Part shown: positions 23,278 to 63,998 of the stretch, piece after piece | How the letters are laid out: the number at the start of each line of letters is the position of its first letter | Position numbering within the stretch: position 1 is the stretch's first letter | IMG/VR virus record: IMGVR_UViG_3300027788_001769 | Coordinates: 72,769-136,768 of that record | DNA length: 64,000 nt | Reading direction: 5' to 3' (one strand) | Source: a virus | The notes under the pieces: generated by a model | The model's input: only the letters and a program-made list of their open reading frames with translations | Database searches by the model: none | Told to the model about the DNA's origin: nothing | Translations under genes and position numbers: made by a program

Positions 23278-23484
23278 ATGAATATAGAAAAAATAAAAAG
23301 TGTTTTAGAGAATTATAGTAAAGTATCTAATAAAGAGTTATCCGACGTAATGGTTTTTTTAAAGGGTAGGTTTGACGAGTCTAAAAATACCGTAATACAA
23401 TTAACACATCAAATGGACGAGTTAGAAAGAGATTATAATAGGTTAAATTCTGAACTTAAAAAAAGAGTAAGTACTAATGGCTAA
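23278..23484 (+). CDS. Small coiled-coil protein
   Basis: Heptad pattern; coupled to the next gene. Confidence 0.55.
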   Translation: MNIEKIKSVLENYSKVSNKELSDVMVFLKGRFDESKNTVIQLTHQMDELERDYNRLNSELKKRVSTNG

Positions 23485-25147
23485 AAATATTAAAATGATA
23501 TTATTTGGGGTTTGTATAAACAGTGACGACCCTTTATTGGCCGCTAGAATTAGAGCTGTTACAGACGACAATTATTCTGGTAACAATCCTAAAGATTACG
23601 ATATTGCTACATGTCAAAAAATAAGTCAAGGGAATAAAGATTTATACCCTAGGACAGAGGACGTATATTGGAGTAAGGATGACCCACATATTTGTGCTCC
23701 CTTACTTCCTTACTATATTAATGTTATTCCAGAGTCTAACGAAAATGTTAAAATATTCTTATATAGTTCAGAAAATGACAGTCAAAATAAAGAGTACTTA
23801 GGACCCACAATATCACAACCACACAAATTAAGTGGGGAAGCTTATGCTGATGGTAGACTTCATACGTCCAAAGGAACCAGAGTAGAAGCTGCTAGGGCAA
23901 TAACCGACTCTTCAGTTTCGGAAGGTAGTTTTTCTTATCCAGGTTCTGTTAGTTTAGATGGTAGACATAATTCTGATGTTGTCTTGGGTAATAGACAAGT
24001 AGTCTTACGTTCCGGAAAATTTACACACAATAACCAAAAACCAGAATTTCCAATATACAATGTAAAACAAAGTTTAATTCAGGTAGATAGTTTTGAGAAG
24101 GGATTAAATTTGATTCCAACAGAGGATAAAAAATTAGAAGTTCAAGAAAGTAATGTAAATTATGTGGTAGAGTATGATATTTTAGATTTAGCTCCAGCAG
24201 ATGGATTTTTTAATGGGAGTGTAACTTTATTTAAAGTAGAGTCATTACCAGACAAAGAAAAAATAACAACTAAAAATATGGGGTTAACGACACCTATTTT
24301 AACAGTTGCTACTCTTAAAGAAAGAGCTAGAGTTAGTTTTTTTAATCAAAGCTTTTCCGGTGTAACTACTTTGGTTAATTCATTTTTAGAGGAAGTGGAC
24401 AATAGAAACGGTAAAAAACTAACTGACCCTATAGGCATTAGTGGGTATGAGGGTTATTTAGGTACTGGTACTTTTATAAAGTCAGGAGAATATATAGATA
24501 TCGGTTCTGCAGCACCCAATAACGAAGAAATACTAGCTTTACACCCATTTTTCTTTAGACCTAGTAGTACACTAAGAAGACAATTAAATTCCAATGATAC
24601 TTTAATACCTAACAGTCAAACCGCATCTAACGCTACTAAAGTAAAAGAAAAAATACGGTTAATTGGTGTTAATGGAAATCAGTACTGGGGACTTTCCTGG
24701 TCCAGAAACGAAAAGAATGTACCGACCAAAGAAATTACTAGAAAGTACGATAAAGAAAGTACTGAAACTAAAACACAAGGTGTTATTACCTTGTTAACAG
24801 ATAAAATTGTTTTATATTCACACGATACCAGAATCCCCAATGCCCCAAAAACCATTCCTTTAGTGGATAACACCAACATCCCATCAGCTAGAGAAAATTT
24901 AGGTATAGACCAAAAAACTTTAGTTACCTTGATTGAAAAGGAAACTGAACCCCTGGTTAGAGGAGACCAATTAAAAAAAGCTTTGGAACGTATAGTGGAT
25001 TTTTTAAAGTATCATGAACATAAAGAACCTGGTACCCCTACAGTGGATAAAACACAACACGGAGGAAAAGAAACTTGGGAATCTTTAGAGACAATGCTAA
25101 AAGAATTCGATAAAACTGTATTAAATAAAAATATAAGAATCAACTAG
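23477..25147 (+). CDS. Baseplate hub / gp5-Vgr-like spike protein
   Basis: N-terminal OB-fold-like GVCINSDDPLLAARIRA...PLLP..IP..E.VKI; GRHNSD; C-terminal EPLVRGD...HEH. Confidence 0.6.
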   Translation: MAKNIKMILFGVCINSDDPLLAARIRAVTDDNYSGNNPKDYDIATCQKISQGNKDLYPRTEDVYWSKDDPHICAPLLPYYINVIPESNENVKIFLYSSENDSQNKEYLGPTISQPHKLSGEAYADGRLHTSKGTRVEAARAITDSSVSEGSFSYPGSVSLDGRHNSDVVLGNRQVVLRSGKFTHNNQKPEFPIYNVKQSLIQVDSFEKGLNLIPTEDKKLEVQESNVNYVVEYDILDLAPADGFFNGSVTLFKVESLPDKEKITTKNMGLTTPILTVATLKERARVSFFNQSFSGVTTLVNSFLEEVDNRNGKKLTDPIGISGYEGYLGTGTFIKSGEYIDIGSAAPNNEEILALHPFFFRPSSTLRRQLNSNDTLIPNSQTASNATKVKEKIRLIGVNGNQYWGLSWSRNEKNVPTKEITRKYDKESTETKTQGVITLLTDKIVLYSHDTRIPNAPKTIPLVDNTNIPSARENLGIDQKTLVTLIEKETEPLVRGDQLKKALERIVDFLKYHEHKEPGTPTVDKTQHGGKETWESLETMLKEFDKTVLNKNIRIN

Positions 25148-25148
25148 A

Positions 25149-25156
25149 TATTTATT
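25149..25156 (+). promoter_or_regulatory. Putative late promoter TATTTATT
   Basis: Recurrent motif, 11 nt before the ATG at 25168. Confidence 0.6.
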
Positions 25157-25167
25157 AATAAAAACTA

Positions 25168-26718
25168 ATGTCAGTACACAAATCATATTTTAAAAAAAAC
25201 AATACTTTATTGTCTTATGACAGGACTAATACCGCTAAAAACCCAGTAACTGAGGTGTATTATGGTGGTGGGTCATCTAGAAGGGATTGTAAATTTACAG
25301 GAATACCTACAGATATTTGTGTAAATCCGGAAGGAGTAGCCTTAACTGGTTACACATCTATTCGAATAAATAACGACTATAGTAGATTTATTTTTGATTT
25401 AGATATTACTGATTTAGAAAGTAAAATATCCGATAAGACAATAATAACTGGTTCACATGGTTGTAATAATGCATCAGCTAAACACACATTAAGAATGGTT
25501 AACACTTCTTTCTTCGATGATGAGTTACTAAACACTGTTACATCTAAGAATAAAAGAAGAGCTAGTTCATTTGATTTGGTTTTATTTAAAATACCGACTG
25601 GTACTACATGGAGTGAGGGTGTTGGTTATGACTACACTAATATGTCAAGTGATTTTGTTGGTTTAGATGACAATTCTTTTTCTACTGTTCCCAGTAACTG
25701 GTACTCCGCTACCACTACTTCTTCGTGGCCATGTTTGGGAATATATAATTACACAACTTGTGTCCCAGAAATTATAGCAACTCAGACTTTTGATAATGGT
25801 AATGAGAACATAGCATTTGACCTTACAAGTGAAATGAATGAGGTGTTGTCTGGTAGTAAAAATATGAGTGGGTATGGTGTTGCTTTTGTGGAACAATTAG
25901 AAAGGTTGACTGGTTTAACAGAAAGTTACTCCGTAGGTTTCTTCACTAAGTACACACAGACATTTTTTGAACCTTATCTTGAAACTAATTATGATGATTA
26001 TATTTTAGATGATAGAGATTTTTTCTATGAAGGAAAAAGTAACTGTCTTTATTTATATGTGAATAAAGGTGGTGTACCAACAAATTTAGATAACTTTCCT
26101 ACCGCACAAATCTACGATAACTCTGGTACGGTTTTATATACTATCACAGCATCCCAGGTAACGAAAGGTGTTTACTGTGCATGTTTTACCATAGCGTGTG
26201 ACGAATATGTTGCTCCTTGTATGTTTAAAGATAGGTGGTCTAATTTATCTATTAATGGAAATTGTCAATCTGACGTAACCAATAAAGTCACATTAAAATC
26301 TAACTCTGATTATTTTAATATAGGTACTAACGCTGGATTACCAAAACATTATGGGTATTCTATATCTGGAATTAAAATGGACGAAAAAATCGTAAATGGG
26401 GACATTAGAAAAGTTATAGTTTCTGCTAGACAACAATATACCACTAATTTTCCAGTAGCTTTAGATTTAATACAGTATAGGATATACGTTAAACAAGGTA
26501 CTACACAAGTAGAAACTCAAGAATGGACAAAAGTAAATATAGCTCACAACCAAAATTACTTTGTTGTTGACACAGGTGATATGGTACCCAATGAGTACTT
26601 TATAGATATTCAAGCCATATCTAATCTAGAAAAAAACACTTACTTTGAGACGGTAAAATTCCAAGTTGTAAATCAAGCTAACTATTTTGGCAATCCACCA
26701 TCTGACTATAGACAATAA
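25168..26718 (+). CDS. Putative virion structural protein (beta-rich)
   Basis: Late motif upstream; Thr/Ser/Cys-rich; YSRFIFDLD...TFFEPYLE. Confidence 0.55.
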   Translation: MSVHKSYFKKNNTLLSYDRTNTAKNPVTEVYYGGGSSRRDCKFTGIPTDICVNPEGVALTGYTSIRINNDYSRFIFDLDITDLESKISDKTIITGSHGCNNASAKHTLRMVNTSFFDDELLNTVTSKNKRRASSFDLVLFKIPTGTTWSEGVGYDYTNMSSDFVGLDDNSFSTVPSNWYSATTTSSWPCLGIYNYTTCVPEIIATQTFDNGNENIAFDLTSEMNEVLSGSKNMSGYGVAFVEQLERLTGLTESYSVGFFTKYTQTFFEPYLETNYDDYILDDRDFFYEGKSNCLYLYVNKGGVPTNLDNFPTAQIYDNSGTVLYTITASQVTKGVYCACFTIACDEYVAPCMFKDRWSNLSINGNCQSDVTNKVTLKSNSDYFNIGTNAGLPKHYGYSISGIKMDEKIVNGDIRKVIVSARQQYTTNFPVALDLIQYRIYVKQGTTQVETQEWTKVNIAHNQNYFVVDTGDMVPNEYFIDIQAISNLEKNTYFETVKFQVVNQANYFGNPPSDYRQ

Positions 26719-27018: not shown

Positions 27019-27022
27019 TAGT

Positions 27023-29758: not shown

Positions 29759-31621
29759 TTATCTAAGTTCTTTGATATCGAAAGTTCTAACTCCATCAAG
29801 TTGGATAAATCCGTAGAATCTATTGTTAACCATTTTCTTAGCGTATCTAGTCATGATACCTTTGATTGGTGCAAAGTTGAACGGGTTATACATTGTTGGT
29901 GTTAATTGTAATGGAACGTAAGGTGCGTATACGTAACCAGTATCAAGTAAAGAAGTTCCTTTGTGTCCTACCAAACATCCGTTTGCTGGGAAGTAAGGGT
30001 CTCTATATACTGTATATCTACCACCTAAAGTACCGATTTTTTCAATACCCATGTTATATTGGTCTTGGTCTGGAGAAGCGTTAGACACGTGGAAGTATTC
30101 TAAATCATCAAAGATTGCAGAAACTTCAGAAGAACAAACAATCCAGTTAGCCCCACCTCTCAACGTAGATTTGTGAATCTGTGCTGATAATTGGTTAATA
30201 GCTGTAATTAATGTTTGGTTCCAGTCTTTTTGAGTGTAAGGAGCTTGACCAGCTGCGAATCTCTTCCAACCGTTGTAGTCCCATCTCAATCTCCATGCTG
30301 CACCTTTTCTAAGGTCTAATAAAATTTCCCTGTCGATTTCAGCAGCAACTTCTTCAGAAAGTAAAGCTGTTAATTCAGCTTCAGCATCAATGTTGTGGAA
30401 TGCAGAAACGTCTTGTGCTAATTCCGGTGACCACTGAGCTCTTAATTTTCTTTCAGTAACAGAAACCGTTACAGAATCTAAATCAAAAGAAACTTCAGCA
30501 AGTTCCGTAGAGAATTCTAAATCTTCATATTGTCTCCATACTCCTGTAAATGTACCTGTGTTAGCGTTAAAAGCGTTACTACCAGCAACGATATCACTAC
30601 CCATAAACCATCCACCCATGTAACCATCTGGTGAATCACAAGAAATACATGCTGGACATGAAGTATCTAATTCGATGTAAATTTCACCTGCAGTATCACA
30701 AAGATTATCGAACTTACCACCTGGAAGTGCGTTAGTTGTTTGAGTTCCGTAGTCTACAATACCTTTACCATATTTTTGAGTTACAACTCTAAATGGTATG
30801 TGAGTTTTGTTAGCTTCAACAGTTTTTGTAGTTGCCGTATTTGAACAACAGAAAATGTCGTCATTAGCAACAAAATAAAGTGAACCTAAGAATTCCTCAG
30901 TATCCATTTCATTACCACTTGGTCCAGATAATTTACCAGCTCCTAATCCCCAGAAACCTCCAAGTTTAATGATAAGTCCTCTTACACCACCTTGGTTGTT
31001 AGAACCACAATTAGTGTTACCAGATACACCAGCACCGTTTTCTCCAAGTACCTCAACTAGTTCACCGTTATTGTTAGTGTTCCATGCTACAGATTTAGCA
31101 ACACTTGTTACACCTGTATAAGCTCCTTTAGACCTGTCCCATAGACCTTGTCCGTCTGCATAATATTGGTCATATAAGTCAACACTATCAAATTGAGTGT
31201 TTGAGTTACCAAATGCTCCACCTTGTGGATTATAATGTCCTTCACCAGCTGCTAATGGTTCGTTACCTACTACACCAGCTCTTCTAGATGAAATTTTAGG
31301 TACAAAGTAGAACAATTTACCAATTGGTAAGTTCATAGCTTGTACAGAAACGATATCGTTTGCCAATAATTTAGAGAATACTCTCCTTACGATTGGAAAT
31401 ACTACAGTTTCAAAAGAACCTGACGCATCTGCCGATGTTGCTTCGTTTATTAAATGTGTTGCTTGATTTTCGTATAATTGAGCGATGTTCTCTCTAGTGT
31501 GACCTTTAAGTCCTTCTAGAAATCCTAACTTGTCCCATTTACCGATGGTATCTTCACGGATAACTTTAAGGTGTTTTAACCCAATGTTTCCGACCATACC
31601 TGATTCTAATAATGCTCCCAT
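29759..31621 (-). CDS. gp23: T4-like major capsid protein (gp23) with a large insertion
   Basis: VRRVF...DIVSVQAMNLPIGKLFY, RKLRAQWSPELAQD...HNIDAEAEL...EIDREI, YAPYVPL, GIMTRYA. Confidence 0.95.
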   Translation of the reverse strand: MGALLESGMVGNIGLKHLKVIREDTIGKWDKLGFLEGLKGHTRENIAQLYENQATHLINEATSADASGSFETVVFPIVRRVFSKLLANDIVSVQAMNLPIGKLFYFVPKISSRRAGVVGNEPLAAGEGHYNPQGGAFGNSNTQFDSVDLYDQYYADGQGLWDRSKGAYTGVTSVAKSVAWNTNNNGELVEVLGENGAGVSGNTNCGSNNQGGVRGLIIKLGGFWGLGAGKLSGPSGNEMDTEEFLGSLYFVANDDIFCCSNTATTKTVEANKTHIPFRVVTQKYGKGIVDYGTQTTNALPGGKFDNLCDTAGEIYIELDTSCPACISCDSPDGYMGGWFMGSDIVAGSNAFNANTGTFTGVWRQYEDLEFSTELAEVSFDLDSVTVSVTERKLRAQWSPELAQDVSAFHNIDAEAELTALLSEEVAAEIDREILLDLRKGAAWRLRWDYNGWKRFAAGQAPYTQKDWNQTLITAINQLSAQIHKSTLRGGANWIVCSSEVSAIFDDLEYFHVSNASPDQDQYNMGIEKIGTLGGRYTVYRDPYFPANGCLVGHKGTSLLDTGYVYAPYVPLQLTPTMYNPFNFAPIKGIMTRYAKKMVNNRFYGFIQLDGVRTFDIKELR

Positions 31622-43830: not shown

Positions 43831-44271
43831 TTAATTTCTTAGTCCTTGTATCCCTAACCTATAATATGTAGTATCTGGGTCACTTCTATGATTTACTGGA
43901 CGAACTCCCCCAGAATTACCTCCCAATCCACTACCACCATCACCACCGATAAAAGTATCACCACTATAGTTATACGCTATACTTTGACTTGGGTATGCAA
44001 AAGCACTTAGTGGGTCACTACAGTCGTGACAACTACAAATAAAACACGCGTTAGTGAGAGTACCTGATATGGTGGAAATGCCAACATCTAACGTACCACC
44101 ATCTATCAACCCTATGGTTGCACCGTTAACAACTAAACTAGAAACAACACCACTTGCTAGTATACTATGACAAGTTGTACCGGTCAATGTACCATCTGAT
44201 GTAAGGTATGGTTGAATTGCTACCCCACAATATAATTTATCACCACCATGAATTCCTGCGTAATCTGACAT
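43831..44271 (-). CDS. Small Gly/Cys-rich putative virion protein
   Basis: CFICSCHDC; late motif at 44291-44298. Confidence 0.55.
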   Translation of the reverse strand: MSDYAGIHGGDKLYCGVAIQPYLTSDGTLTGTTCHSILASGVVSSLVVNGATIGLIDGGTLDVGISTISGTLTNACFICSCHDCSDPLSAFAYPSQSIAYNYSGDTFIGGDGGSGLGGNSGGVRPVNHRSDPDTTYYRLGIQGLRN

Positions 44272-53200: not shown

Positions 53201-56200
53201 CCCACACTCTATTATCTTCTCCATTTAAAATTGACCCATAGAAATTCCATGACCCACTAACGTTTCCTCTGTGTAGGACCTGGTTGTTAACACCATTACC
53301 AACTAAACCATATTGTCCACCTGTAGTTGTTACCCCAGAAGTTGCATTTAGACGACCATTTAATATGGTATTATGTTTTCCAAAAACTACTGTATTTCTT
53401 AAACCTTGTCCAACGTAACCCATTCTAGTGTCTTTTATAAGATGGAGCGTACCTCCAACAGCTACACCATATTGACCTCCTTCTACTCTATTTGCTACAC
53501 CACCAACAACTGAGGAGTATATTCCTTTGTTAATAAAGTTGTAAGCTCCTCCACCGATATGTGAACCTACAGTACCACCTGTTATCGTATTTAAATCACC
53601 ACCAAGAATTGAGGAGTAGTTAGACCACCCGTATCCTTCGTTCGGACTGGGAACAAAAGTATTTATAACTCCGGTAATTAGATTTCTTTTACCACCACCT
53701 ATATTATTATAGTAACCATTTCTAATATCATTTTCTTGGAATGCTGTTGCTGGTAATTTAGGTACTATAGTACCCCAACCAGTATCGTATCTATAAGGAC
53801 CTTCGGTAAATTCATTACAAGTGTTAGCTGTTAAAACTGTACCATTACTAACTACAACATACATAGTACATCCACTAGTGTAGGCTGAAACTGCGAATGT
53901 ATCACCTGTTAAATCCACATTTCTAGTTTCCTTCCACACAGCGTCACCAGCACTATTGATAGATGTTAATATTCTGTTAGTACCCGGGTTTGCAAATGCA
54001 CCATAATATCTAAATGCACGTGCTCCTTCTGTTGTGTTAGTATTAACATACAAACCTTTCATATGGGTAGTTTGTGACCTAGACGCGGTAATATCTACAC
54101 CACCAATAATTGCCGCTGCTTTCATTGCTCCAGTTATTGTATTACCACTACCATTAACAATTACTGAGTAATTAGGTGTTTGTTCACTTCCCGGTTCTTT
54201 ACCACTCGGGAATATTCTATTTTCTTTACCACCTAAAATTCCAGAATATGTAGAACCTGAAATGTAATTTATATATCCATTTAATATAGTACCATAACTA
54301 CTACCACGCCAGATTCTATTATCACCTCCATTTACTATAGTAGCATGACTAGTAACATCATTCTGATAATGAGAATATATGTGATTGTCCAGACCATTAC
54401 CTATCAAACCATACTGTATCCCTATTGAACGAGAATCACCTGATATTACAGCATCTGTACCATTTTGGATACTACTATTCCAACCGTTACCTATCTTATT
54501 TATGTGTCCACCATCTATATTAGAATATACTGATTTTACCATCGAATTCTTCCACCCTCCTTGTATATTAGAAGCTGTAACATTTTCCATATAACTAATG
54601 TTTCCACCCCCAGCAGAAACGTAACCATTTACCATCAAATTGTAAGAACCACTTAACCAACTATCATTAGTATTACCAGATATGGTATTTGTATTACCAT
54701 TAATAATAGCGTTATTGAATGTTTTAGTTTCTATAACAGGTGGTAAACCAGCTCCAAATAAAATAGTATTGTTTTGCCCCCCAGCTATATTATGGTAGAA
54801 ACCATGTTTATTATCATTACCAACCCCACTTGCTTGTGTCGGGATTACTGGTCTAATAGAATCTACACCAGTAGAATATTCGTAAGGGCTAATAGACCCA
54901 AACTGATTACATGTATTAGCAGTTAATGTTGTTCCATCACTTATGTCTATATACAATGTACATCCACTAGTATAGGCAGAGACAGCAAATGTATCACCCG
55001 TTATTCTAGGTCCACCCATTTGTTGCCAAACAGCATCACCAACACCATTAACACTTGTTAACACTCTACCAAGACCTGGGTTTGCAAATGCACCATAATA
55101 TCTAAATGCACGTGCTCCTTCTGTAGTGTCAGTATTAGCATAAAGTCCTTTCATGTGAGTAGTTTGGGACTTGCTTGAGTTTATATCCACACCACCTAGA
55201 ACGGCTGCACCAACATGAGATAAACTAATTGTATTTCCACTACCATTTAGAATACCTGAATAGTGTGGTACCTCCATCCCCTCTCTAAATGCTTGTGTGA
55301 TTGTATTTCGATAACCACCAACAATAGAAGATTCAGTAACCCCACTTATTCTATTGTCATGACCACCACCTATAAAACTACGTGTACCACCATTCCATAT
55401 TTCATTTCCACGACCACCCACTATTGAAGCTTCTCTATTGTCCGCACCAAATGATGTAATTGTGTTTTGATAACCACCACCAATTACAGCGTACATGAAT
55501 TCACCACTAGTCCCTTGATTGGCTTCAATAACATTTAAATTACCACCACCTATAAACGAGTGTGTTGCTCCAGAGATATAATTGTACCCACCACCAACTA
55601 CACTAGACCATCTAGACCATCTCATTCTATTATTAATTCCAGCCCCAATAAATCCTGCGTCAGAATCAATTATAGAACTATTTTGTCCACCTGCGAGTGT
55701 GGTATGAGAAGAATTTTGTATATAACCATTAGTACCAAACAAATAAACACTATGAGAAGAAGCCTGTTCACCAGCCCCTAAACTAGACCCCCCAACTATA
55801 AGATTATTTCTACCACCTGTAGCACTGTTGTTGGTGTTACCCGATATCGTGTTATTCATACCATTAATAATAGCGTTATTGACTGTTTTAGCGACATTGG
55901 TACTACCTATGTTGGCCCCATATAATATTGTATTTTGTTGACCACCTGCTATGTTGTGATATATTCCGTGTAAATTATCATTACCGACCCCACTTGCTTG
56001 TGTTGGTATGACAGGACGAATCGAGTTTGCTGCTGTGGAATATTCGTAAGGGCTAATAGACCCAAATTCATTACAGGTGTTAGCGGTTAATGTTGTTCCA
56101 TCACTTACATCTATATACAACGTACATCCACTAGTATAGGCTGAAATTGCATATGTATCACCAGTTATTCTAGGTCCGCCCATTTCTTGCCAAACAGCAT

Positions 56201-59200
56201 CACCAGCACCACTAATGTCAGTTAATACTCTACCAACACCTGGACTAGCGAAAGAACCATAATATCTAAATGCTCTTTGTCCTTCGGTTGTATCGGTATC
56301 AACATACAGACCTTTCATATGTGTAGTTTGTGACTTAACAGCACTTATATCTACACCACCAATAATGGCTGCCCCATTATATTCCCATGAAATAGTATTA
56401 CCAGAACCATTAACAATAGCTGAATAGTCAGGAGCGAACATTGGACCTTCTTTAGTACCAGGATGTATCTTGTTGTGTCTACCTGATAAAATAGCTGCGT
56501 TGGTGGTTCCTGAAATATAGTTGTATCCTCCACCTAAAATAACTGAACTAATACTTCCTTGCCATATATTATTTCTTATACCACCCCCTATAAAGGAATA
56601 AACACTAGTAAATTGTGTTTGATAGGTACCACCCCCAGTACTGTAATTACCATCTACTATTAAGTTATCGTAACCAGATGCTATACCCATAGAACTATTA
56701 CTAGTTGAGGTTCTACCGGAAATTACGTTTCCTATACCACCACCTATGACGTTACCCCAACCTTTAATAATGGAATGTGAATTACCACCTAGAATCGCAG
56801 AACGACTAGTATTCCATAAGGTATTGAAATATCCAAATACATTACCATAATTCGAATTACGTACATAATTGTATCCACCATGTGCAATAGATGAGGGAGA
56901 AGCCCCTTCTATAATATTTCTATAACCACCTGCGGTAGCATAACTGGTTTGACCACTAATAATGTTTTGTTGACCATTAATTATGGCGTTACCAAAGGTA
57001 TCCCAATTGGTCCATATTTTATTTTTCGACCCACCAGCGATATTGTTGTATTGGGTGATAATACCATTGTGTCCTGCACGATTTACTATACTTGGATTTG
57101 AAGGTAATTTAGGGACAATGTTTTGATTTACTTCATCATACCTATAAGGGCTATCAGTGAACCCATCACATATGTTAGCGTCGTATACTGTGCCATCAGT
57201 TAATGTAATAAAAAGTGTACATCCACTGGTGTGAGCGGACACTACATAGGTATCACCGGTAAGTGTACCACCAGTGTACCCAATTATTGGGATTCTACTC
57301 CATACCGCATCACCCCCTCCTGTTGAGTCCATTAAAAAGGAACCAAAACCAGGATTAGCATAACCACCTTTATATGTAAATTGTCTATTTCCCTCAGTTG
57401 TGTTAGTATTAACCTCCAACCCTTTCATGTGAGTAGTTTGTGACCTAACAGCACTTATGTTAACACCACCTATAATAGCTGAGGCATTATATTCGTATGA
57501 AATAGTATTACCCGTACCATTAACAATTACCGAGTATTCCGGAGCGTACTTAATAACACCTTCTTTACCGTTAGGGAAAATTCTATTTTCTACACCGTTA
57601 ATGATGGTAGCGTATGTCACCCCAGAAATGTAATTTATATGTCCATTACCTATAAGACCATAACTACTACCACGCCAGATTCTATTACTATCACCATTAA
57701 GTATGGTACCATAATTAGAGGATAACCCCGTAATTCCTTGACTAATGATTTTATTAGTAAGACCACCTAAAATAATTTTACTTCTTAGTGTTTGTGTATC
57801 CGCACTAATTATGTTTCCTTTACCAGCCATAATAGCTGACGCATTTGACCTCCAAATTTGACCATCAGTTCCGGCACCTATAAAATTTCTATCTGAAGAA
57901 TTAATATAGTTTTTTAAACCACCAACTAAAGATTCTGAAGAACCATGTAATATATTCTGACTACCAAATACGTGTGAACTACTTGATTGGGTACCGACTA
58001 CGTTTTTGTATCCACCTACACCCGCATAACTTGTTTGTCCTGAAATGGTGTTTTGAAATCCATTTATGATGGAGTTAGATGTGGTGTCCCAAGAAGTAAA
58101 TATTTTATTTCTTTGACCACCAGCTATGTTATTGTATGTTGTCCATTGAACACCATCACCCGCTTGATTTACAAGTCCTACCGTGTTTGGCAATTTAGGG
58201 ACTATATTATCAACTAGATTGTCATACCTATATGGACTATCAGAGAAACTGTTACACGTATCGGCCGTTAAAGTTGTACCATCACTAACCGTAATATATA
58301 ATGTACATCCACTTGTATAAGCTGAAACTGCGAACGTATCACCTGTAAATGTCGGTCTTCCTGGTATGTCCGACCAAACCGCATTACCCATACCATCCAC
58401 ATCCATTAAGAATTTATTTTGTCCTGGGTTGGCTGCTGCCCCGTGATATTGGAAATATCTTTCACCACCAATCAATGGGTCAGTTAAAGTAGTATTTACA
58501 CTTAAACCATTCATGTACACCGTGTGAGATGTAAGAGACATAATATTTAATCCACCAACAATTGTAGAAGCTCTATGGTTTGATATGTTGTATGCTCCGT
58601 TTAGTACAGTAGCATAATCTGCTCCTACTCTATTAGATAACCCATTAAGTATTGAGTTTCTTGTACCACCACTAATTATATTTTTATCTCCGTTAACAAT
58701 AAGAGAAGAGAAACCTTGATTATTACCGTCTAAGTTTTGAATTTTATTGTGACTACCATTTACAATAGCATTCCACCCATAATTGTCTGGTGGGGAGATG
58801 TCTATCATATTTTTACTACCACCACCTATAAAGGAATAAGGACTACCCGAAATAGTGTTGGCTCTACCCGCCATAATACCAGATAAGTCTGATACAGTAT
58901 CAAAGAAGTTAATGTCTCCTGGTGCACTTGGTAGTACAGGTCTAATTGAGTTAGGTGATTCACCCCATTGGTATGGTCCTAAATCGTTACATATATCTTG
59001 TATAATGGTCGTACCACTATTTGTTGTTAGTACTAGTTGACAACAACCACTTGTTGTTGCACTTACTACGTATTCATCACCTGAACAATCTCTAGTAGAA
59101 GCTGATGTTGTTCCAGGTGCTGGTTTCCACACTGCTGTACCGTCATTATCTATAGATGTTAATACAAAATTTATATTTGAATTGGTGAAGGACCCATGGT

Positions 59201-61739
59201 ATTTAAATGGTCTGTCACCATGTCTAGTTCCAGTATCTACGTCTAATCCATGCATAAATGTTGTAGATGCTGAAGTAGCTATTAATGAACTACCACCAAT
59301 GATTGCTGCATCTTCTGCATGGGAATATATGGTATTACCAGAAGCGTTTAATATAGTGGAAAATCTGGCATTAAGAACGGTATTCTCCTGACCACCTAGA
59401 ATAGACATTCTATCTGCAGGACCTTCAAGGGTATTTTGTCCACCACCCCCTATAAATGATACGGATGCACTATTAGTTATTTTATTATTTATACCACCCG
59501 CAATAGAATTAGTGTACCCTGATATTAAATTATTAAATCCACCACCTATAAAAGAATATGTGGATGTGGCACTCATTACCGATATTTGATAAGTTTCTAC
59601 ATTAGTGACCGCTGTATATATACTACCAGAAATTTCATTTTGCTGTCCACCCACGATTGATGAGGCAGTACTTCCGGGTTTGATACTGTTGTTACTACCC
59701 GCACCAATAAACCCATAAGTGGATTTTATTTCATTATTGATACCAGCTACTACAGTAGAAGAATACCCACTGATTTCATTTGAATACCCACCACCAATAA
59801 AAGCATATTTAGAATTAAGTCCATGTACTGGAACATTATGGTTTCCGTGTATTTGATTTGATGCACCAGCAACAATTGCTGTTGATTGGTTATTTTCATG
59901 TATTGTATTTGTAACACCAACACCAATTAAACTATTAGGTGACCCAGAAAATATTATATTTTGTCTACCAGAAAGTATTGCACTTCTAAATGATTCTGTT
60001 TCAATTATATTACCGTACCCCGCACCAATAATTGCTTGTTTACTACGTACTTGATTTAATCTACCGGAAACAATAGCGGCATGAAATCCGGTTTTTTGAA
60101 GTTCTAAATGAGAGTTAGTGTGTATGGTATTATCTTGACCACTACCAATAAACCCATATCTATGATTAATTGTGTTACCTGTACCACCCCCTATAAAAGA
60201 ATAAGCGGAGTAATGGTTAATTGTATTTCCCGAACCACCTACAATAGATGACCAAGAACTTCCAGATTGTATTATGTTTCTATGTCCACCTACAACTACA
60301 TTATCTGTTCCACCTTGGATTTCATTGTGTTCTCCTGCCCCAATGAAACTATATTCTCTATATTTTTCTGTACCTTCACCATCAACAGAACCAGCATCTG
60401 CTTTTATGGTATTATGGAATCCACCTACAATGGCTGCCCCTACTGTATTATCTAATTGATTTACTTTACCACCACCAATGAAGTTATTTAAACTTTGTTC
60501 ATCTTCTGTATTGTCACCGTCAATCCTATTCTCCTGACCACCCACAATTGAACTGTATGTGTCTCCAGAAATGACATTTTTACTACCACCGACTATGGAA
60601 CTATACCCACCATACATGTGTTCTATGGTATTTTCATAACCACCACCTATAAAGTTCCCGGTAACACCATAACCCACTACATTGTCTTTTCCACCAACAA
60701 TAACACTAACCCCTTGTGTTTCCCCAGTGATTATATTATATTCACCACCAACTATCAATGAACTTACTGGTGTTGCCCCTGTAAGTTCAAAAGCTCTTTG
60801 TATTTTATTCTGTAAACCACCACCTATAAATGAACTACCAACACCGTGTAACCTATTAAAACTACCACCAACTAAAGTATTGCCAGAAAACGTGAGACCC
60901 GAAGCCACGTACGCTATTATATCATTTTTCTGACCACCCACAATTAATGAATAGGATGAACCAGATAAATCGTTACTTAACCCACCACCTATAAAACTAA
61001 AATTAGAATCTAAATCGACAATATTATAATACCCCCCTTGTACATTTGACAGTTCTCCTCTTGCATAAGAGTGGTGTTGACTTGTAACCCTAGGTTCTAT
61101 AGCTCTATACCCTTCACCGTAATGGTAAGGTGTTACACCTGAAATATCTACATTCCAGGATACACCATCATTTCTAAAAATTTGTAAATTAGTTTCATTT
61201 GTTAATGTAAAATTACTTATAAAGGTATCTGCTGATACAGTACCACCAGATTGTGGTGGACACCAATTCACATTCCCATAACCATCAGTACATAGAACAT
61301 AATTGACTGCCCCATCAAAACATGGAAAGGTATAACTACTAGTAGAATTATAATTAAATGTAACACCACTTATACCAAAATTAACGTCACCACATCCATC
61401 ACAATTGGTGTTTATTGTTACCCCACTTGTGCAATCACATGCTTCTATTTGATTAGCTGTTACTGGTGTATGGCAAAAATCACCGTCGTTAACGAAAACT
61501 AAAGTGTCTCCAGATATAAAAATACTGGTACCACTTAGTCCCGCTAAAGTTCTAAAATTAAGGAATCCATCGTTTGAGTTGGCCGTCTTACTTAAATAAA
61601 TTCCAGCACCATTACCTAGGTTATTACCTACTGTAAGGTCAATTTTGTCACTTAGAATCTGTTGATTGCTATCAAGTTCTGCGTGGGTAAGTGCGTTAGA
61701 AGCACCTACTCTCATATAAAAAGGAATTGGATATGGCAT
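50259..61739 (-). CDS. Giant modular tail fibre / adhesin (beta-solenoid repeats)
   Basis: N-terminal ALTHAELDSN; very many S.I.GG..N.I repeats; about 9 modules; late motif at 61754-61761. Confidence 0.8.
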   Translation of the reverse strand: MPYPIPFYMRVGASNALTHAELDSNQQILSDKIDLTVGNNLGNGAGIYLSKTANSNDGFLNFRTLAGLSGTSIFISGDTLVFVNDGDFCHTPVTANQIEACDCTSGVTINTNCDGCGDVNFGISGVTFNYNSTSSYTFPCFDGAVNYVLCTDGYGNVNWCPPQSGGTVSADTFISNFTLTNETNLQIFRNDGVSWNVDISGVTPYHYGEGYRAIEPRVTSQHHSYARGELSNVQGGYYNIVDLDSNFSFIGGGLSNDLSGSSYSLIVGGQKNDIIAYVASGLTFSGNTLVGGSFNRLHGVGSSFIGGGLQNKIQRAFELTGATPVSSLIVGGEYNIITGETQGVSVIVGGKDNVVGYGVTGNFIGGGYENTIEHMYGGYSSIVGGSKNVISGDTYSSIVGGQENRIDGDNTEDEQSLNNFIGGGKVNQLDNTVGAAIVGGFHNTIKADAGSVDGEGTEKYREYSFIGAGEHNEIQGGTDNVVVGGHRNIIQSGSSWSSIVGGSGNTINHYSAYSFIGGGTGNTINHRYGFIGSGQDNTIHTNSHLELQKTGFHAAIVSGRLNQVRSKQAIIGAGYGNIIETESFRSAILSGRQNIIFSGSPNSLIGVGVTNTIHENNQSTAIVAGASNQIHGNHNVPVHGLNSKYAFIGGGYSNEISGYSSTVVAGINNEIKSTYGFIGAGSNNSIKPGSTASSIVGGQQNEISGSIYTAVTNVETYQISVMSATSTYSFIGGGFNNLISGYTNSIAGGINNKITNSASVSFIGGGGQNTLEGPADRMSILGGQENTVLNARFSTILNASGNTIYSHAEDAAIIGGSSLIATSASTTFMHGLDVDTGTRHGDRPFKYHGSFTNSNINFVLTSIDNDGTAVWKPAPGTTSASTRDCSGDEYVVSATTSGCCQLVLTTNSGTTIIQDICNDLGPYQWGESPNSIRPVLPSAPGDINFFDTVSDLSGIMAGRANTISGSPYSFIGGGSKNMIDISPPDNYGWNAIVNGSHNKIQNLDGNNQGFSSLIVNGDKNIISGGTRNSILNGLSNRVGADYATVLNGAYNISNHRASTIVGGLNIMSLTSHTVYMNGLSVNTTLTDPLIGGERYFQYHGAAANPGQNKFLMDVDGMGNAVWSDIPGRPTFTGDTFAVSAYTSGCTLYITVSDGTTLTADTCNSFSDSPYRYDNLVDNIVPKLPNTVGLVNQAGDGVQWTTYNNIAGGQRNKIFTSWDTTSNSIINGFQNTISGQTSYAGVGGYKNVVGTQSSSSHVFGSQNILHGSSESLVGGLKNYINSSDRNFIGAGTDGQIWRSNASAIMAGKGNIISADTQTLRSKIILGGLTNKIISQGITGLSSNYGTILNGDSNRIWRGSSYGLIGNGHINYISGVTYATIINGVENRIFPNGKEGVIKYAPEYSVIVNGTGNTISYEYNASAIIGGVNISAVRSQTTHMKGLEVNTNTTEGNRQFTYKGGYANPGFGSFLMDSTGGGDAVWSRIPIIGYTGGTLTGDTYVVSAHTSGCTLFITLTDGTVYDANICDGFTDSPYRYDEVNQNIVPKLPSNPSIVNRAGHNGIITQYNNIAGGSKNKIWTNWDTFGNAIINGQQNIISGQTSYATAGGYRNIIEGASPSSIAHGGYNYVRNSNYGNVFGYFNTLWNTSRSAILGGNSHSIIKGWGNVIGGGIGNVISGRTSTSNSSMGIASGYDNLIVDGNYSTGGGTYQTQFTSVYSFIGGGIRNNIWQGSISSVILGGGYNYISGTTNAAILSGRHNKIHPGTKEGPMFAPDYSAIVNGSGNTISWEYNGAAIIGGVDISAVKSQTTHMKGLYVDTDTTEGQRAFRYYGSFASPGVGRVLTDISGAGDAVWQEMGGPRITGDTYAISAYTSGCTLYIDVSDGTTLTANTCNEFGSISPYEYSTAANSIRPVIPTQASGVGNDNLHGIYHNIAGGQQNTILYGANIGSTNVAKTVNNAIINGMNNTISGNTNNSATGGRNNLIVGGSSLGAGEQASSHSVYLFGTNGYIQNSSHTTLAGGQNSSIIDSDAGFIGAGINNRMRWSRWSSVVGGGYNYISGATHSFIGGGNLNVIEANQGTSGEFMYAVIGGGYQNTITSFGADNREASIVGGRGNEIWNGGTRSFIGGGHDNRISGVTESSIVGGYRNTITQAFREGMEVPHYSGILNGSGNTISLSHVGAAVLGGVDINSSKSQTTHMKGLYANTDTTEGARAFRYYGAFANPGLGRVLTSVNGVGDAVWQQMGGPRITGDTFAVSAYTSGCTLYIDISDGTTLTANTCNQFGSISPYEYSTGVDSIRPVIPTQASGVGNDNKHGFYHNIAGGQNNTILFGAGLPPVIETKTFNNAIINGNTNTISGNTNDSWLSGSYNLMVNGYVSAGGGNISYMENVTASNIQGGWKNSMVKSVYSNIDGGHINKIGNGWNSSIQNGTDAVISGDSRSIGIQYGLIGNGLDNHIYSHYQNDVTSHATIVNGGDNRIWRGSSYGTILNGYINYISGSTYSGILGGKENRIFPSGKEPGSEQTPNYSVIVNGSGNTITGAMKAAAIIGGVDITASRSQTTHMKGLYVNTNTTEGARAFRYYGAFANPGTNRILTSINSAGDAVWKETRNVDLTGDTFAVSAYTSGCTMYVVVSNGTVLTANTCNEFTEGPYRYDTGWGTIVPKLPATAFQENDIRNGYYNNIGGGKRNLITGVINTFVPSPNEGYGWSNYSSILGGDLNTITGGTVGSHIGGGAYNFINKGIYSSVVGGVANRVEGGQYGVAVGGTLHLIKDTRMGYVGQGLRNTVVFGKHNTILNGRLNATSGVTTTGGQYGLVGNGVNNQVLHRGNVSGSWNFYGSILNGEDNRVWDRTYYSHIGNGLKNQISGATYASIHNGKQNFISGIELGGEGVVHRETQYPTILNGSGNTISAWADASVILGGVDIQATLSQTTYMKGLDVDTDTHNGHRKFRYHGAWANEQSGRFLKSVNNLGDAVWADIEGPRVDLTGDTYAISAYTSGCTLYIDVSDGTTLTANTCNQFTEGPYEYGTANESIRPKLPPQSSFWKNRVLQGQNHNIAGGRGNLIVYSIDDRLTSNKITSNGIINGDLNTISGASYNSAIGGNYNYMNTVTGSGEDAGMGQNNASWMFGFSNYLENSKYTSIAGGSTNSVQSSDKSFIGSGQQNKILTESHDASIVGGQENTILRSRRSFIGGGFQNTISGTTNGSLENFIGAGHGNKIISGLGGEINLHSSIVGGYQNILWQGSEQGFIGGGENNYISGTTYSSVLNGRDNRIFPFGKQPGTEGVPDYSVIINGTGNTIAGEFKSAVVMGGNDMFARRSQTTHIKGLYVDTDTTDGTRAFTYRGSFANPAAGRVLKSINSVGDAYWADPNSVQMTGDTFAVSAFTNGCILNVLLSDGVTLTANTCNEFTDSPYRYDLGNGNIIPKLPVNPSSSGYNIAGGAGGSYNNIGGGRYNGISGYTSVIAGGSTNKIGDVGYGFIGGGSDNSISDSLAYTTIVGGFKNEIVKGTTNWFTFIGGGRDNRITGNVTGSGGGSQHSSIVGGEKNLISGITSNEKWSLIGGGENNTIVNGIKGVIVNGWDNSISPASGLITNHSYQSSILNGRGNLILADTASHYYGHILGGSGHTTHAIAHSSAILGGVDMTAFTPSTTYLDSAQVNGKIRVASKEFMQSSNSNFTASYQTPVTTLDVVHDNNTFSTMSAGTAGGEIVRFGTTGPGYLPGMLVQLRNGKWYPADADETSQQGNMLGVSLGASPSLGILIRGFAALNSTADGVTTWSIGGPLYVSQTAGQITETAPSASNRYVRVVGYMTETSNLVYFNPDGTFIKIA
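51530..59090 (-). repeat. Eight long-period modules (about 1.1 kb) inside the fibre gene
   Basis: TGDT.AVSAYTSGCTLY..VSDGTTLTANTCN junction near 51.6, 52.7, 53.9, 55.0, 56.1, 57.2, 58.3 and 59.0 kb. Confidence 0.9.
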
Positions 61740-61784: not shown

Positions 61785-62603
61785 CTAGAATAGATATGTT
61801 TTTGTTGGTATTGGTGAAACTTTGTATTTGTGTTTTTCATTACCTAGAGTTTTAACCACTTTTTTTGCTAGATTTAGTGTGTTTTTTACGTCTTCTATAA
61901 CCACATATTCGTCTTTAGTGTGGTACCTATAATACCCAGCTGCAAAATTTAAACAAGAAAAATCAAATTTTTGTGATAGAATCATAGTGTCGGTGTATGG
62001 GTGATGTCGCCATTCGGTTAAACCGTGTTCGTTAATTAAGTTTTTTACTTTACCTATAAAATCACCATCCTCTTCAAAAAGAGGCGTTCCCATTAATGTT
62101 TTACTCATGGTGTTATTTTCAGTAGAGTCAAATTGTATAGCATAAGAAACATTAGTAAAAAAATCTGGGTTAGCCTTTTTAGACCCATGACACCCAGTTT
62201 CTTCCGCAACTGGTAAGAAAATTTTACAAGACTCTAACTCTCTTAACAATTCTAAACATATAAAAACACCAGCTTTATCATCACCACCTATCCCAGTGGG
62301 TTTTCCACTTATTTCTTCATAAGCCTTTAATGCTAGTTTTAATTCTCCCTGTGCGTTAGGTAACATCTCTTCTTCTACCACCATATCTACTTTTTGGTGG
62401 ACCGTATCCAAGTGCGCAACAAAACACGGGTAATATTCTGATTTACCTTTAGTTAGGTACATATTTCCTATATCATCCACCTCAAGAGTGTCACATAGGT
62501 CACTATAATTTTCAACAATATAATTAATAAGGTCGTCCTCTTCCCAAGTGTATGTAGGAATTGAGAGTAAGTTTTTAAGTCTTTGTAGTTTATTATCGTT
62601 CAT
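61785..62603 (-). CDS. M20/M28-like zinc peptidase
   Basis: AHLDTVH, GGDDKAG, AEETG, QFD, GYY.YHT; start probably MNDNK at 62603. Confidence 0.8.
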   Translation of the reverse strand: MNDNKLQRLKNLLSIPTYTWEEDDLINYIVENYSDLCDTLEVDDIGNMYLTKGKSEYYPCFVAHLDTVHQKVDMVVEEEMLPNAQGELKLALKAYEEISGKPTGIGGDDKAGVFICLELLRELESCKIFLPVAEETGCHGSKKANPDFFTNVSYAIQFDSTENNTMSKTLMGTPLFEEDGDFIGKVKNLINEHGLTEWRHHPYTDTMILSQKFDFSCLNFAAGYYRYHTKDEYVVIEDVKNTLNLAKKVVKTLGNEKHKYKVSPIPTKTYLF

Positions 62604-62607
62604 ATTA

Positions 62608-62638
62608 CAAATATACAACAAAATAAGTTATTGACAAA
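62608..62638 (-). promoter_or_regulatory. Bacteroidota-type promoter (TTTG ... TATATTTG)
   Basis: Minus strand reads TTTGTCA-16nt-TATATTTG-taat-ATG. Confidence 0.7.
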
Positions 62639-62660
62639 ACAATTAGACTATAAAATTGTA

Positions 62661-62861
62661 TTATGGATGTTCAGAATTAACTTTATCTGTTAATTCGTTT
62701 AATTTTGAGACTATTTTTTCTAGGATAGTACTAAGTACTTCCGCATCACCATCACCCATTGAGTACTCAATACTAGCTTCAGTTTCACGGGTATGGGTAT
62801 CTCCACTATTACTTATAATGTTAAGTGCATTTAATTCTTCTGTTATTTTTTCTATAGACAT
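62661..62861 (-). CDS. Small helical protein downstream of the second fibre gene
   Basis: 66-aa ORF ending IVSKLNELTDKVN. Confidence 0.6.
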   Translation of the reverse strand: MSIEKITEELNALNIISNSGDTHTRETEASIEYSMGDGDAEVLSTILEKIVSKLNELTDKVNSEHP

Positions 62862-62885
62862 AGTATACTTTTTAAAATTTTATTT

Positions 62886-63998
62886 TTATGTGGTACCCGA
62901 TAATGTGGTAGCAAGTACTACTGTCCATGTACATTGGTTTGCGATAGACCCACCATCTTGTGCAGATATGGCAGGCATTATTACATCTCCTCTACTTACC
63001 GCTAAAGGTTCTCCTATTCCATTTATAAAGTAAGGTCTACTATTAGATATTCCACCATCATCATTTCCAGCTCCAAAAAATCTTAAAGTCATAGTGTTAA
63101 CATTACCGGTTCCCCAATCTAAAGTAGAAGTAAATAATGCAGCATTTCTTGGGTCTGATTCAGCACCATTATTTCTACAATTACAATAAAAACCTTCTAA
63201 AATACCATCAAATGGTATAGGTATAGCTTGAGCCGCACCATTACTTGCTACAGTAAATGTATTCCCTACGGTCTGGTTACTTCCAGCATAACCAGAATTT
63301 ACATTCCAAGTATGGTTAGAAATACCACCACCAATAGATGGTAATATCCAATTATTTGTCGCAGCTAAAGAACCACTTACACTAGAATAATAACTAACGT
63401 AAGTTCGACTGTAGGCCCCATCAACATAAGCTTTAACATTACCTTGGGTTGGTAGTTTGGTGTCGGAAGTACCTAAAGCATTATTATCTTCAATTGTTGT
63501 TACTCTTGCACCGGACCCACCTAATCTTACACCTTCATCACTTATATCTAATCTTGAAGAACCTCCTGTTTGGTATTCTTGGGTGTCTGTGCCAAAAGTT
63601 ATTTTATTGTTAGTATCGTTATCGTGAGCAACTGTATCACATTCTAAAGTAGCTATATTTGTAATGTTAGTTGTATCATCACCAACAATATTTCCATTGA
63701 CGGTTATACCGCTGGTGGTTATATCACCTGAGACTGTTATATTGCCGTCAATGTTAATACCAGTTGTTATATCTATTATAGTATTCACACTTGTCTTAGC
63801 ACGTATCCGGTCTGTTCTTATTTCAGGTGCACTTACAACAACGGCTGCTTCTACACTATTAGAAACTGTATGACCACTTGCACTTATATTACCTGAGGCT
63901 GTTATAGCACCTATTATATCCACCCCCGTATCACGCACAAGGGATAAAGTTGCAGTTCCTCCATACATTTTCACATTGTTTGTCCCTGCAGTATTAGA
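62886..63998 (-). CDS. Tail-fibre-like virion protein (5' truncated by the window)
   Basis: Frame is open to the edge; ITASGNISASG and DTKLPTQGNVKAYVD fibre-type motifs. Confidence 0.65.
   Translation of the reverse strand, partial: SNTAGTNNVKMYGGTATLSLVRDTGVDIIGAITASGNISASGHTVSNSVEAAVVVSAPEIRTDRIRAKTSVNTIIDITTGINIDGNITVSGDITTSGITVNGNIVGDDTTNITNIATLECDTVAHDNDTNNKITFGTDTQEYQTGGSSRLDISDEGVRLGGSGARVTTIEDNNALGTSDTKLPTQGNVKAYVDGAYSRTYVSYYSSVSGSLAATNNWILPSIGGGISNHTWNVNSGYAGSNQTVGNTFTVASNGAAQAIPIPFDGILEGFYCNCRNNGAESDPRNAALFTSTLDWGTGNVNTMTLRFFGAGNDDGGISNSRPYFINGIGEPLAVSRGDVIMPAISAQDGGSIANQCTWTVVLATTLSGTT

Follow-up and report, generated by a model that had tools for sequence, protein, structure and literature searches.

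The chlorovirus PBCV-1 reportedly glycosylates its own major capsid protein autonomously, with N-linked glycans at sites that are said to have been solved experimentally, and to our knowledge glycosylated phage particles are known experimentally from a few cases only. The present analysis concerns an uncultured jumbo T4-like phage with a full genome of roughly 300 kb, which is represented by a 136,768-bp IMG/VR record (IMGVR_UViG_3300027788_001769; CheckV completeness estimate of 43%). The window, as the analysed stretch is called below, is the last, right-hand 64 kb of this record (64,000 nucleotides, GC content about 32%) and contains an island of sugar-nucleotide and glycosyltransferase (GT) genes, after which come PhoH, a sigma-like protein and then the late genes, encoding a gp23-type capsid, prohead protease, portal, large terminase, Hsp70, a Clp-like ATPase and an open reading frame (ORF) of 3826 amino acids (aa), referred to here as the giant fibre. 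A four-residue word, [S/T]-[G/A]-x-T, recurs in outward-facing virion proteins of this phage lineage and is tentatively proposed to be a glycosylation acceptor motif, a reading to which a probability of about 40% is assigned. As is reported for PBCV-1, the machinery would be virus-encoded and soluble and would act on the virus's own capsid protein at non-canonical sites; PBCV-1 differs in being a eukaryotic virus.

Described glycosylation systems and how the locus compares

The O-glycosylation of mycobacteriophage virions by phage GTs (Freeman et al. 2023) is summarised in PMC12619734, with glycans measured at the C-termini of capsid and tail-tube subunits. The likeness to the present case lies in the proposal that phage GTs modify capsid and tail proteins within the host cytoplasm. 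The differences are that the candidate sites described here are known from sequence alone and consist of a four-residue word at internal positions of many outer proteins, and that their bearer, a T4-like jumbo myovirus, also has a full sugar-nucleotide island.

Aah and TibC are cytoplasmic heptosyltransferases that O-glycosylate Ser and Thr residues in the beta-helix repeats of AIDA-I and TibA. They are reported to recognise a strand-loop-strand structure and not a strict sequence, and no consensus word was found there, the TibA glycopeptides being rich in S-G-G-S/D (PMC3835316). Soluble cytoplasmic O-GTs acting on many Ser/Thr residues in Gly-rich beta-helix repeats would be common to both cases. 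However, Aah and TibC belong to a defined heptosyltransferase family that the GTs of this phage do not match, their substrates are bacterial adhesins, and the word found here is sharp. HMW1C, which N-glycosylates the HMW1 adhesin in the cytoplasm at N-x-S/T, also resembles the proposed system in being a soluble enzyme with a short sequon and many sites on a large beta-helical surface protein (PMC3012730), but its glycans are N-linked, its sequon is known and it is a GT41 enzyme, a kind that was not found here.

With regard to phages of similar size, the moraphages are aquatic jumbo phages of up to 307 kb whose core genes include four putative GT orthogroups; a DnaK close to that of Flavobacteriaceae is carried by some of them, and Bacteroidota hosts are predicted (PMC12619734). 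Large cyanomyoviruses, for their part, carry 'LPS/cell-wall' gene clusters (PMC12801897). Several GTs together with sugar-nucleotide genes are thus a trait that these large aquatic phages have in common with the present one. The GT targets suggested for both groups are DNA, the host surface or the virion, and the accessible portions of the two papers describe no acceptor motif (PMC12619734, PMC12801897). The likeness of the present phage to the moraphages is one of shared traits only, namely aquatic origin, a genome of about 300 kb (294 kb in the relative G001, introduced below), several GTs and a DnaK. A literature search found no description of an acceptor word for phage virion glycosylation.

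Enrichment of the word in unrelated virion proteins

Unless another pattern is stated, the motif counted was [ST][GA]x[ST], and the counts were compared with composition-preserving shuffles of each protein (2000 per protein for the window ORFs), the threshold for enrichment being p<=0.002 (p<=0.0025 for the outgroup genomes LR756508.1 and RM378). The first-pass annotation, a reading of the letters of the window, had reported dozens of copies in the giant fibre together with a series of quoted peptides in other genes. All the quoted peptides are present in the genes named, and the fibre carries 87 sites against 30.1 expected (z 10.9), which makes it the sole enriched ORF among the 56 of the window. 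Over the whole record, 6 of 119 ORFs are enriched, namely the fibre and five ORFs outside the window, which are the tail sheath and proteins of 880, 411, 742 and 442 aa (Table 1). The sheath core is conserved at aa 924-1208 and 14 of the 18 sheath sites are found in extra domains at aa 141-458, and in the 442-aa protein an Ig-like virion domain contains all six sites. Shuffling within blocks of 20 or 40 residues, which preserves local composition, does not remove the excess in the fibre, the sheath or the 880-, 411-, 742- and 546-aa proteins.

The same proteins tend to be enriched in three relatives of the lineage that were read whole (G001, G002 and G006, this record being G000). All four lineage genomes show enrichment in the sheath and in the 880-aa protein, 3/3 in the 546-aa protein, and three of four in the 742-aa protein, the Ig-like protein and the 516-aa protein of the window. 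The orthologues of the last carry 10 sites against 1.6 expected in G001, 4 against 1.1 in G002 and 8 against 1.4 in G006, and those of the 556-aa protein beginning at window position 23477 carry 1, 3 and 0. The portal has no site in any of the four genomes, with 0.7-1.1 expected in each. TerL, a scaffold-like protein, the DNA polymerase, Hsp70 and the Clp-like ATPase (ClpB) are at chance, and there is no enrichment in two very large proteins of the virion module (1695 and 612 aa).

That a short motif is shared by different folds, as the first-pass annotation had it, is borne out by the lack of detectable homology among the enriched families. The enriched ORFs are unrelated to the fibre by hmmsearch and to each other by blastp, jackhmmer started from six enriched proteins retrieved orthologues only, and the best hhalign probability among the families was 3.2% over 36 pairs. 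A hidden shared domain consequently found no support in the negative jackhmmer and hhalign searches, and a hidden Markov model (HMM) of the capsid insertion described below matched capsid proteins only. Atlas look-ups gave leads only, the 880-aa protein appearing LamG/ConA-like and the 516-aa protein pointing to CBM96. The extra domains of the sheath and the 880-aa protein are unusually Cys-rich besides being motif-rich.

Specificity of the word

The pattern [ST]G.T occurs at 5.4x its expectation in the fibre (54 vs 10.0) and at 6.5x in the five other enriched proteins (39 vs 6.0), as against 0.97x in the remaining 113 ORFs of the record. Seven permutations of the same residue classes reach 0.6-2.2x overall and 0.6-1.1x in the fibre. 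Enrichment is found only with S/T at positions 1 and 4 and with G/A at position 2, N/D at position 1 giving 0.81x and V/I/L giving 0.66x. The value for N/D leaves an Asx/ST-turn reading unsupported. Since [ST]G.S (about 1.0-1.2x) and the spacing variant [ST]G..T (0.8-1.1x) both stay near 1x, the word is best written [S/T]-[G/A]-x-T. Its flanks are hydrophobic, in 53-64% of cases at position -1 and 35-66% at position +5, for a background of 30-33%.

The codons of the motif are mixed, with both TCN and AGT used for Ser and with Thr and Gly codons as in the background, which points to selection at the protein level and led to the rejection of a DNA-level signal. Local composition was rejected as the source of the excess in the fibre, the sheath and four other proteins, on the evidence of block shuffles and permuted patterns, and was retained for the three window proteins beginning at 23477, 43831 and 62886. 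An unbiased scan of gapped tripeptides placed TGxT third in this record (30 vs 11.1 outside the fibre) and, in G001, placed SAxT, SGxT and TGxT just behind Thr-Pro linker words; the scan of T4 and ACP17 returned nothing similar. The words CxDP and GCxD were flagged in this record too.

Relatives, outgroups and site turnover

The excess extends to the relatives. In G001 (294 kb, 100% complete) 9 of 374 ORFs are enriched and 327 sites stand against 189 expected; the figures are 10 of 388 ORFs and 355 against 217 sites in G006 (318 kb, 96% complete), and 14 of 226 ORFs and 474 against 216 sites in G002 (229 kb, 76% complete). Among six outgroup phages, no ORF is enriched in ACP17 (0/201), LR756508.1 (0/683), RM378 (0/147) or Flavobacterium phage immuto (0/218), the last showing a different word, [ST]GS, at 2.58x. 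T4 has one enriched ORF out of 250 and Microcystis phage Mel-JY01 three out of 228, with the mirror pattern equal or higher in the two most site-rich of them. The counts of Mel-JY01 are dominated by an 805-aa low-complexity ORF of G/T/S repeats (635-3052). Pattern by pattern, [ST]G.T stands at 2.4-3.2x in all four lineage genomes and at 1.0-1.8x in four controls, and [ST]A.T at 1.9-3.1x and 0.8-1.4x, respectively. The lineage thus carries a clear excess on top of a mild general preference.

Site turnover was followed in seven orthologue pairs between this record (62 sites) and G001 (70 sites). The target motif has 24 shared columns (shared fraction 0.36) and 84 unshared sites, and six permuted patterns have 2-6 shared columns (0.10-0.21) and 28-47 unshared sites. 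With both a higher shared fraction and more unshared sites, the target sites are better kept and also more often new. Such a strong excess, limited to one lineage, to outer proteins and to families without detectable homology, suggests a reader that is specific to the lineage and acts on many proteins.

The sugar island and the candidate writers

Pfam families of the island include UDP-GlcNAc 2-epimerase, GDP-mannose 4,6-dehydratase, a DegT aminotransferase and a C-methyltransferase, alongside epimerases, reductases, RmlC-like and RmlD-like proteins, three or four GT2 and one GT1. Upstream of the window the island continues with RmlB and a 506-aa protein of two GT-A domains that is similar to chondroitin synthase (E 2e-8). 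Two small DUF4254 proteins are also found in the island. PF00535 has six matches in the record and is matched in 5/5 relatives searched. This record and G001 are collinear, and the island occupies the same locus in both (84.6-96.2 kb in G001), with the same flanking genes and mostly different content, so that it resembles an O-antigen-type swappable cassette.

Three GT-like genes that flank the island are kept at 45-54% identity in G001, G002 and G006: the gene of the 506-aa protein upstream of the window (record 70613-72133) and a pair inside it, at 45-52%. Of the pair, the 362-aa protein encoded at 18300-19388 is weakly GT-B-like (E 0.12-0.6 with GT-B-type PDB chains), and the 263-aa protein at 19390-20181 is GT-A-like (PF00535, E 0.0015; PDB chain 6P61, E 0.0095). 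The trio has no blastp match in any of the six outgroup phages, and a separate genome search with the 263-aa protein gave no match in LR756508.1 or RM378. In a crude Kyte-Doolittle scan, the G001 island and those island ORFs that lie inside the window are free of transmembrane-like segments, and island ORFs upstream of the window have two weak hydrophobic segments. Pfam and NCBIfam scans of the island ORFs returned no flippase, polymerase or lipid-carrier transferase family.

Under the proposed mechanism, [S/T]-[G/A]-x-T, usually with a hydrophobic residue on both sides, would be selectively kept and repeatedly gained in the lineage. It is found in the fibre, in the outer sheath domains, in the insertion of the capsid protein and in several further proteins, of no known family and mostly encoded in the tail/baseplate gene block. 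The motif would mark small exposed beta-strand-turn-strand elements, whose hydroxyls may serve as acceptors of cytoplasmic O-glycosylation; the three lineage-conserved soluble GTs would be the writers, and the enzymes of the swappable island would go on to elaborate the glycan. The excess of the motif, how specific it is, how it is spread over proteins and genomes and which genes are present have been shown directly; the attachment of sugar, the carrier residue and the writing enzyme are all things that we infer. If the writer is conserved and the island exchangeable, this would be compatible with diversifying selection on a surface glycan. The broadest form of the proposal, a virion-wide O-glycosylation code in a widespread aquatic jumbo T4-like lineage, in which the GT trio writes on the hairpins of every outward-facing domain and the hypervariable island changes the glycan from strain to strain, is held with less confidence than the acceptor motif itself and should be taken as speculative.

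The giant fibre and a purely structural reading

A different account of the same word is purely structural, and it has a real chance of being right, if a less than even one. Hydrophobic-[S/T]-[G/A]-x-T-hydrophobic would then be a tight amphipathic beta-hairpin or solenoid corner, with the Gly in the turn and Thr-type residues exposed; the thin all-beta outer domains of the lineage would use this hairpin heavily, and the sugar island would act on host surface glycans or DNA. The symmetry of the hydrophobic flanks at positions -1 and +5 speaks for it, and so do several features of the giant fibre.

The fibre is built of about 10 tandem units of 365 aa. One unit compared with the whole fibre gave 12 segments at 25-53% identity by blastp and 13 domains by hmmsearch, the seven best-kept units being 33-53% identical to the query unit, and single units are enriched too, with 7-10 sites against about 2-3.5 expected. 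Each unit has at its N-terminus a hairpin module with Cys and four sites, followed by a body of 16-17-residue repeats and a conserved C-terminal module. The fibre contains 128 G..N.hydrophobic coil signatures at a modal spacing of 16-17 aa, and 24 of the 87 sites directly follow such a signature. Furthermore, two beta-solenoids of solved structure, 3ULT (E 0.0013) and 3PR7 (the UspA1 head, E 0.0035), are weak matches of the fibre profile, in sequence of biased composition. The fibre has in common with the UspA1 head and with the ice-recrystallisation-inhibition protein 3ULT repeats of about 14-17 residues, conserved Gly/Asn and short strands; the fibre units differ by adding the Cys-containing N-terminal hairpin and the conserved C-terminal module, and the E values are only about 1e-3 for sequences of biased composition.

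An AlphaFold model of one unit is all-beta and without helix, with 5-residue strands and 3-residue turns (mean pLDDT 65; 65-92 in the body). According to this model, 47 of the 56 sites of the seven units would lie in short strands or at their ends (pLDDT 63-86 at the sites), which is consistent with the structural account. The DSSP states predicted over the four motif residues are EEEE at 20 sites, EE-- at 8, E--E (a two-residue hairpin turn), --EE and EEE- at 6 each, E--- at 1 and coil at 9.

A physical preference of this kind should nonetheless hold in all phages, and the strong excess is missing from the six outgroups. Distant solenoid relatives of the fibre do not show it either: the solenoid part of the fibre profile is widespread (6037 proteins at E<=1e-3), and the best 150 profile relatives have a median z of 0.2, with 22% above z 3 and the excess restricted to the nearest ones. 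The motif as a generic property of this solenoid class was rejected on that median. Both flanks are depleted in V/I/L (0.66x, 0.84x), residues well suited to strands, and N/D turn caps are not enriched. The lineage excess of [ST]A.T over the controls, the lack of detectable homology among motif-sharing families and the number of unshared lineage-specific sites, twice that of permuted patterns, are also difficult to reconcile with structure alone. The first-pass annotation had counted confinement to beta-solenoid turns as an outcome that would speak against glycosylation, which is invalid, since Aah and TibC are described as modifying beta-helix repeats (PMC3835316); with this precedent, a solenoid-corner location is no argument against glycosylation.

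No relative of the fibre was found in published phages or in IMG/VR, and it is absent from G001, G002 and G006. A large protein library does contain near-full-length relatives (1161-3409 aa), and the fibre seems to be an accessory one that is mobile or changes fast.

The capsid insertion

The major capsid protein matches PF07068 in two stretches that flank a lineage-specific insertion (E 4.4e-72; 244 bits for a cut-off of 24.4) and also matches phrog_138 (1.1e-66). All four capsid sites of this phage are inside the insertion, and are thus internal and not C-terminal. IMG/VR holds at least 598 relatives of this capsid; for the best 80, identity in the best segment is 62-75%, and the match spans residues 1-620 in all but three. 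Published phages reach up to about 43% identity and do not have the insertion, none of 2534 records covering 80% of the query. Over 81 capsid proteins, 436 of 485 sites are in the insertion, and shuffles of the insertion only give 5.10 sites observed against 1.77 expected, with 81/81 sequences above expectation; as these sequences are related, this does not amount to 81 independent events. The mirror pattern in the insertion reaches 1.23x. Pairwise identity is 52% in the insertion and 91% in the capsid core. Two positions are well conserved: Y-[T/S]-G-x-T is found in 70/81 sequences and is lost in this phage, and [W/Y/F]-[S/T]-A-[I/V]-T is found in 67/81. The confinement of the capsid excess to such conserved columns is a further point for the structural account.

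Weighing the acceptor motif

Several results weigh against an acceptor motif. Inside the window, the first-pass annotation had named the capsid and four further proteins as carriers besides the fibre, and all five are at chance: the capsid (4 vs 1.94 expected, p 0.13), the 25168 protein (4 vs 1.88, p 0.12), the 23477 protein (1 vs 1.36, not significant), the 43831 protein (2 vs 1.41, p 0.42) and the 62886 protein (5 vs 3.81, p 0.34; 4 vs 3.5 for its 362-aa form in block shuffles). Pooled, these five reach 16 vs 10.3 (p 0.049), for a set picked for having the motif. The 21 late non-fibre ORFs of the window total 19 vs 17.2 (p 0.37) and the 34 enzyme or non-virion ORFs 12 vs 15.8. Block shuffles give the same picture of the window; with the narrower pattern [ST][GA].T they give 4 vs 1.0-1.1 for the 25168 protein (p 0.011-0.020). 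The claimed excess in unrelated virion proteins therefore holds once the rest of the record and the relatives are included, and fails for five of the six listed proteins in the window, where the proposed comparison of structural with non-structural proteins singles out the fibre and leaves the other late ORFs near expectation. Since the shuffles reproduce the late-protein counts, the contrast between late proteins and enzymes that had been seen by eye exists in the raw numbers but is mostly composition, and the enzymes of the phage carry about as many motifs as expected (71 vs 72.9), without depletion.

Other points concern the nature of the sites. Across the seven aligned units of the fibre, eight motif columns are each kept in 6 or 7; these columns were inherited through tandem duplication, so the 87 sites represent far fewer independent events. 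The motif Gly of the fibre is the turn glycine of the 16-17-residue solenoid repeat and aligns with the turn Gly of UspA1 and of the ice-binding solenoid. In the capsid insertion, the distinct motif columns number 58, compared with 48-54 for seven reordered or re-spaced patterns (32-54 with sub-patterns), and with so few extra columns the capsid excess rests on a handful of conserved positions; the capsid model, with a mean pLDDT of 52.6, is too poor for mapping them. Three of the four control genomes show a mild [ST]G.T excess of 1.4-1.8x without any such system, and a 1026-aa ORF of T4 (156542-159622) has 6 sites vs 2.0, so that part of the signal is ordinary beta-turn preference. A purely structural element would be in keeping with the symmetry of the hydrophobic flanks, the register of the solenoid and the conservation of columns in the capsid.

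With regard to the enzymes, the conserved GTs match no known family of protein O-GTs in Pfam, NCBIfam or PDB sequences, the PDB searches giving hits of generic GT-A and GT-B type only, and membrane-free peripheral GTs could also act on host lipid-linked glycans. The motif excess and the GT trio occur together in 4/4 lineage genomes and are both missing from 6/6 outgroups, which is the association that the first-pass annotation had asked for; this association has one evolutionary origin, and no lineage relative without the GTs was found, the trio being present in the three relatives read whole, so that there is no natural knock-out. The idea of a phage O-glycosylation system written by the GT cluster is accordingly strengthened by an excess in outer virion proteins that is specific in order, spacing and hydroxyl residues and by the co-occurring GTs, and weakened by that single phylogenetic origin. 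Its core, a short motif shared by different folds with the GT cluster as the natural writer, survives every test run, and the idea as a whole is partly supported.

A second alternative is another lineage-specific reader, either a different modification of Ser/Thr or a decoration or assembly protein that docks on the hairpins. A lineage-specific excess in unrelated outer proteins fits any reader of many proteins, and candidates are at hand among the many genes of unknown function, as 47 of the 119 ORFs of the record have no match even in G001. Pfam, PHROG and NCBIfam scans of part of the record ORFs found no kinase or other Ser/Thr-modifying enzyme, and the GTs are the only conserved hydroxyl-acceptor enzymes in the region, which makes this alternative improbable next to the acceptor motif. 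Chance or composition, by which Ser, Thr, Gly and Ala would simply be common in structural proteins, does explain the count of the 21 late window ORFs, such proteins being richer in S/T and G/A, but is very hard to credit beyond that, as neither whole-protein nor block shuffles reproduce the fibre, the sheath and four other proteins, permuted patterns do not share the excess and three more genomes replicate it; it is refuted for the lineage as a whole and stands for the 23477, 43831 and 62886 proteins.

Features of the window and the record

The coordinates of the features discussed are collected in Table 1. Of the three relatives, only G001 has an orthologue of the Hsp70 gene, which is missing from G002 and G006. 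The 278-aa metallopeptidase-like protein is kept in G001, although the fibre that it adjoins is absent there. The 236-aa sigma-like protein, whose G001 orthologue is 58% identical, has distant homologues in immuto and Mel-JY01 and probably serves these T4-like phages as late sigma factor. In PhoH, one of two motif matches is the Walker-A loop G-S-G-K-T, a sign that the word can arise in an enzyme for an unrelated structural reason.

Table 1. Location of the features in the window (positions 1 to 64,000) or, where stated, in the whole record; site counts are observed vs expected.
Feature	Position	Strand	Remarks
Sugar-nucleotide and GT island	138..16772	+	extends upstream of the window to about record base 69640
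PhoH	16769..17434	+	
Lineage-conserved gene pair, candidate initiating transferases	18300..20181	+	362-aa weakly GT-B-like and 263-aa GT-A-like proteins
Sigma-like protein	20181..20891	+	236 aa; weak sigma-70 region 2 match
23477 protein ('gp5-like' in the first-pass annotation)	23477..25147	+	556 aa; no Pfam or PHROG family; site at aa 294
25168 protein, late, adjoining head and tail genes	25168..26718	+	516 aa; no known family; sites at aa 60, 144, 180, 248
Major capsid protein, T4 gp23-type	29759..31621	-	620 aa; PF07068, phrog_138; sites at aa 169, 200, 232, 262
Capsid insertion, lineage-specific	30557..31279	-	aa 115-355
Portal	35474..37276	-	
43831 protein, Gly/Ser/Thr-rich	43831..44271	-	146 aa; no G001 orthologue; sites at aa 30, 103
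Hsp70/DnaK	45438..47297	-	full-length; Pfam E 6.8e-258
Clp/Lon-like AAA ATPase	47471..49507	+	phrog_4871; divergent neighbour of Hsp70
Giant fibre	50259..61739	-	3826 aa; no Pfam family
Seven best-kept tandem fibre units of about 365 aa	50640..58346	-	aa 1132-3700; more degenerate copies from aa 169
Metallopeptidase-like protein	61785..62621	-	278 aa; weak M42/M20/M28 matches; adjoins the giant fibre gene
62886 protein, fibre-like	62886..63998	-	truncated by the window end; quoted site at aa 367, the sole C-terminal site among the proteins listed by the first-pass annotation
742-aa protein	record 1-2227		8 vs 2.3
Tail sheath	record 46096-49728	-	1210 aa; 18 vs 6.2
442-aa protein, Ig-like	record 50022-51350		6 vs 1.3
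411-aa protein	record 58897-60132		13 vs 4.5
880-aa protein	record 60524-63166	-	17 vs 3.8

Implications

Should the word turn out to be structural only, it would still be a useful marker of outward-facing domains in this lineage. If it is an acceptor, virion glycosylation sites would become predictable from sequence across hundreds of uncultured aquatic phages, and the enzymes would constitute a compact, soluble, sequon-directed O-glycosylation system with a possible use in cytoplasmic glycoengineering. The particles would then bear a sugar coat that differs between strains, with attachment sites that could be read off the genome, and the swappable island would be a means of surface-glycan diversification, with a bearing on host range, adsorption, grazing and the evasion of defence.

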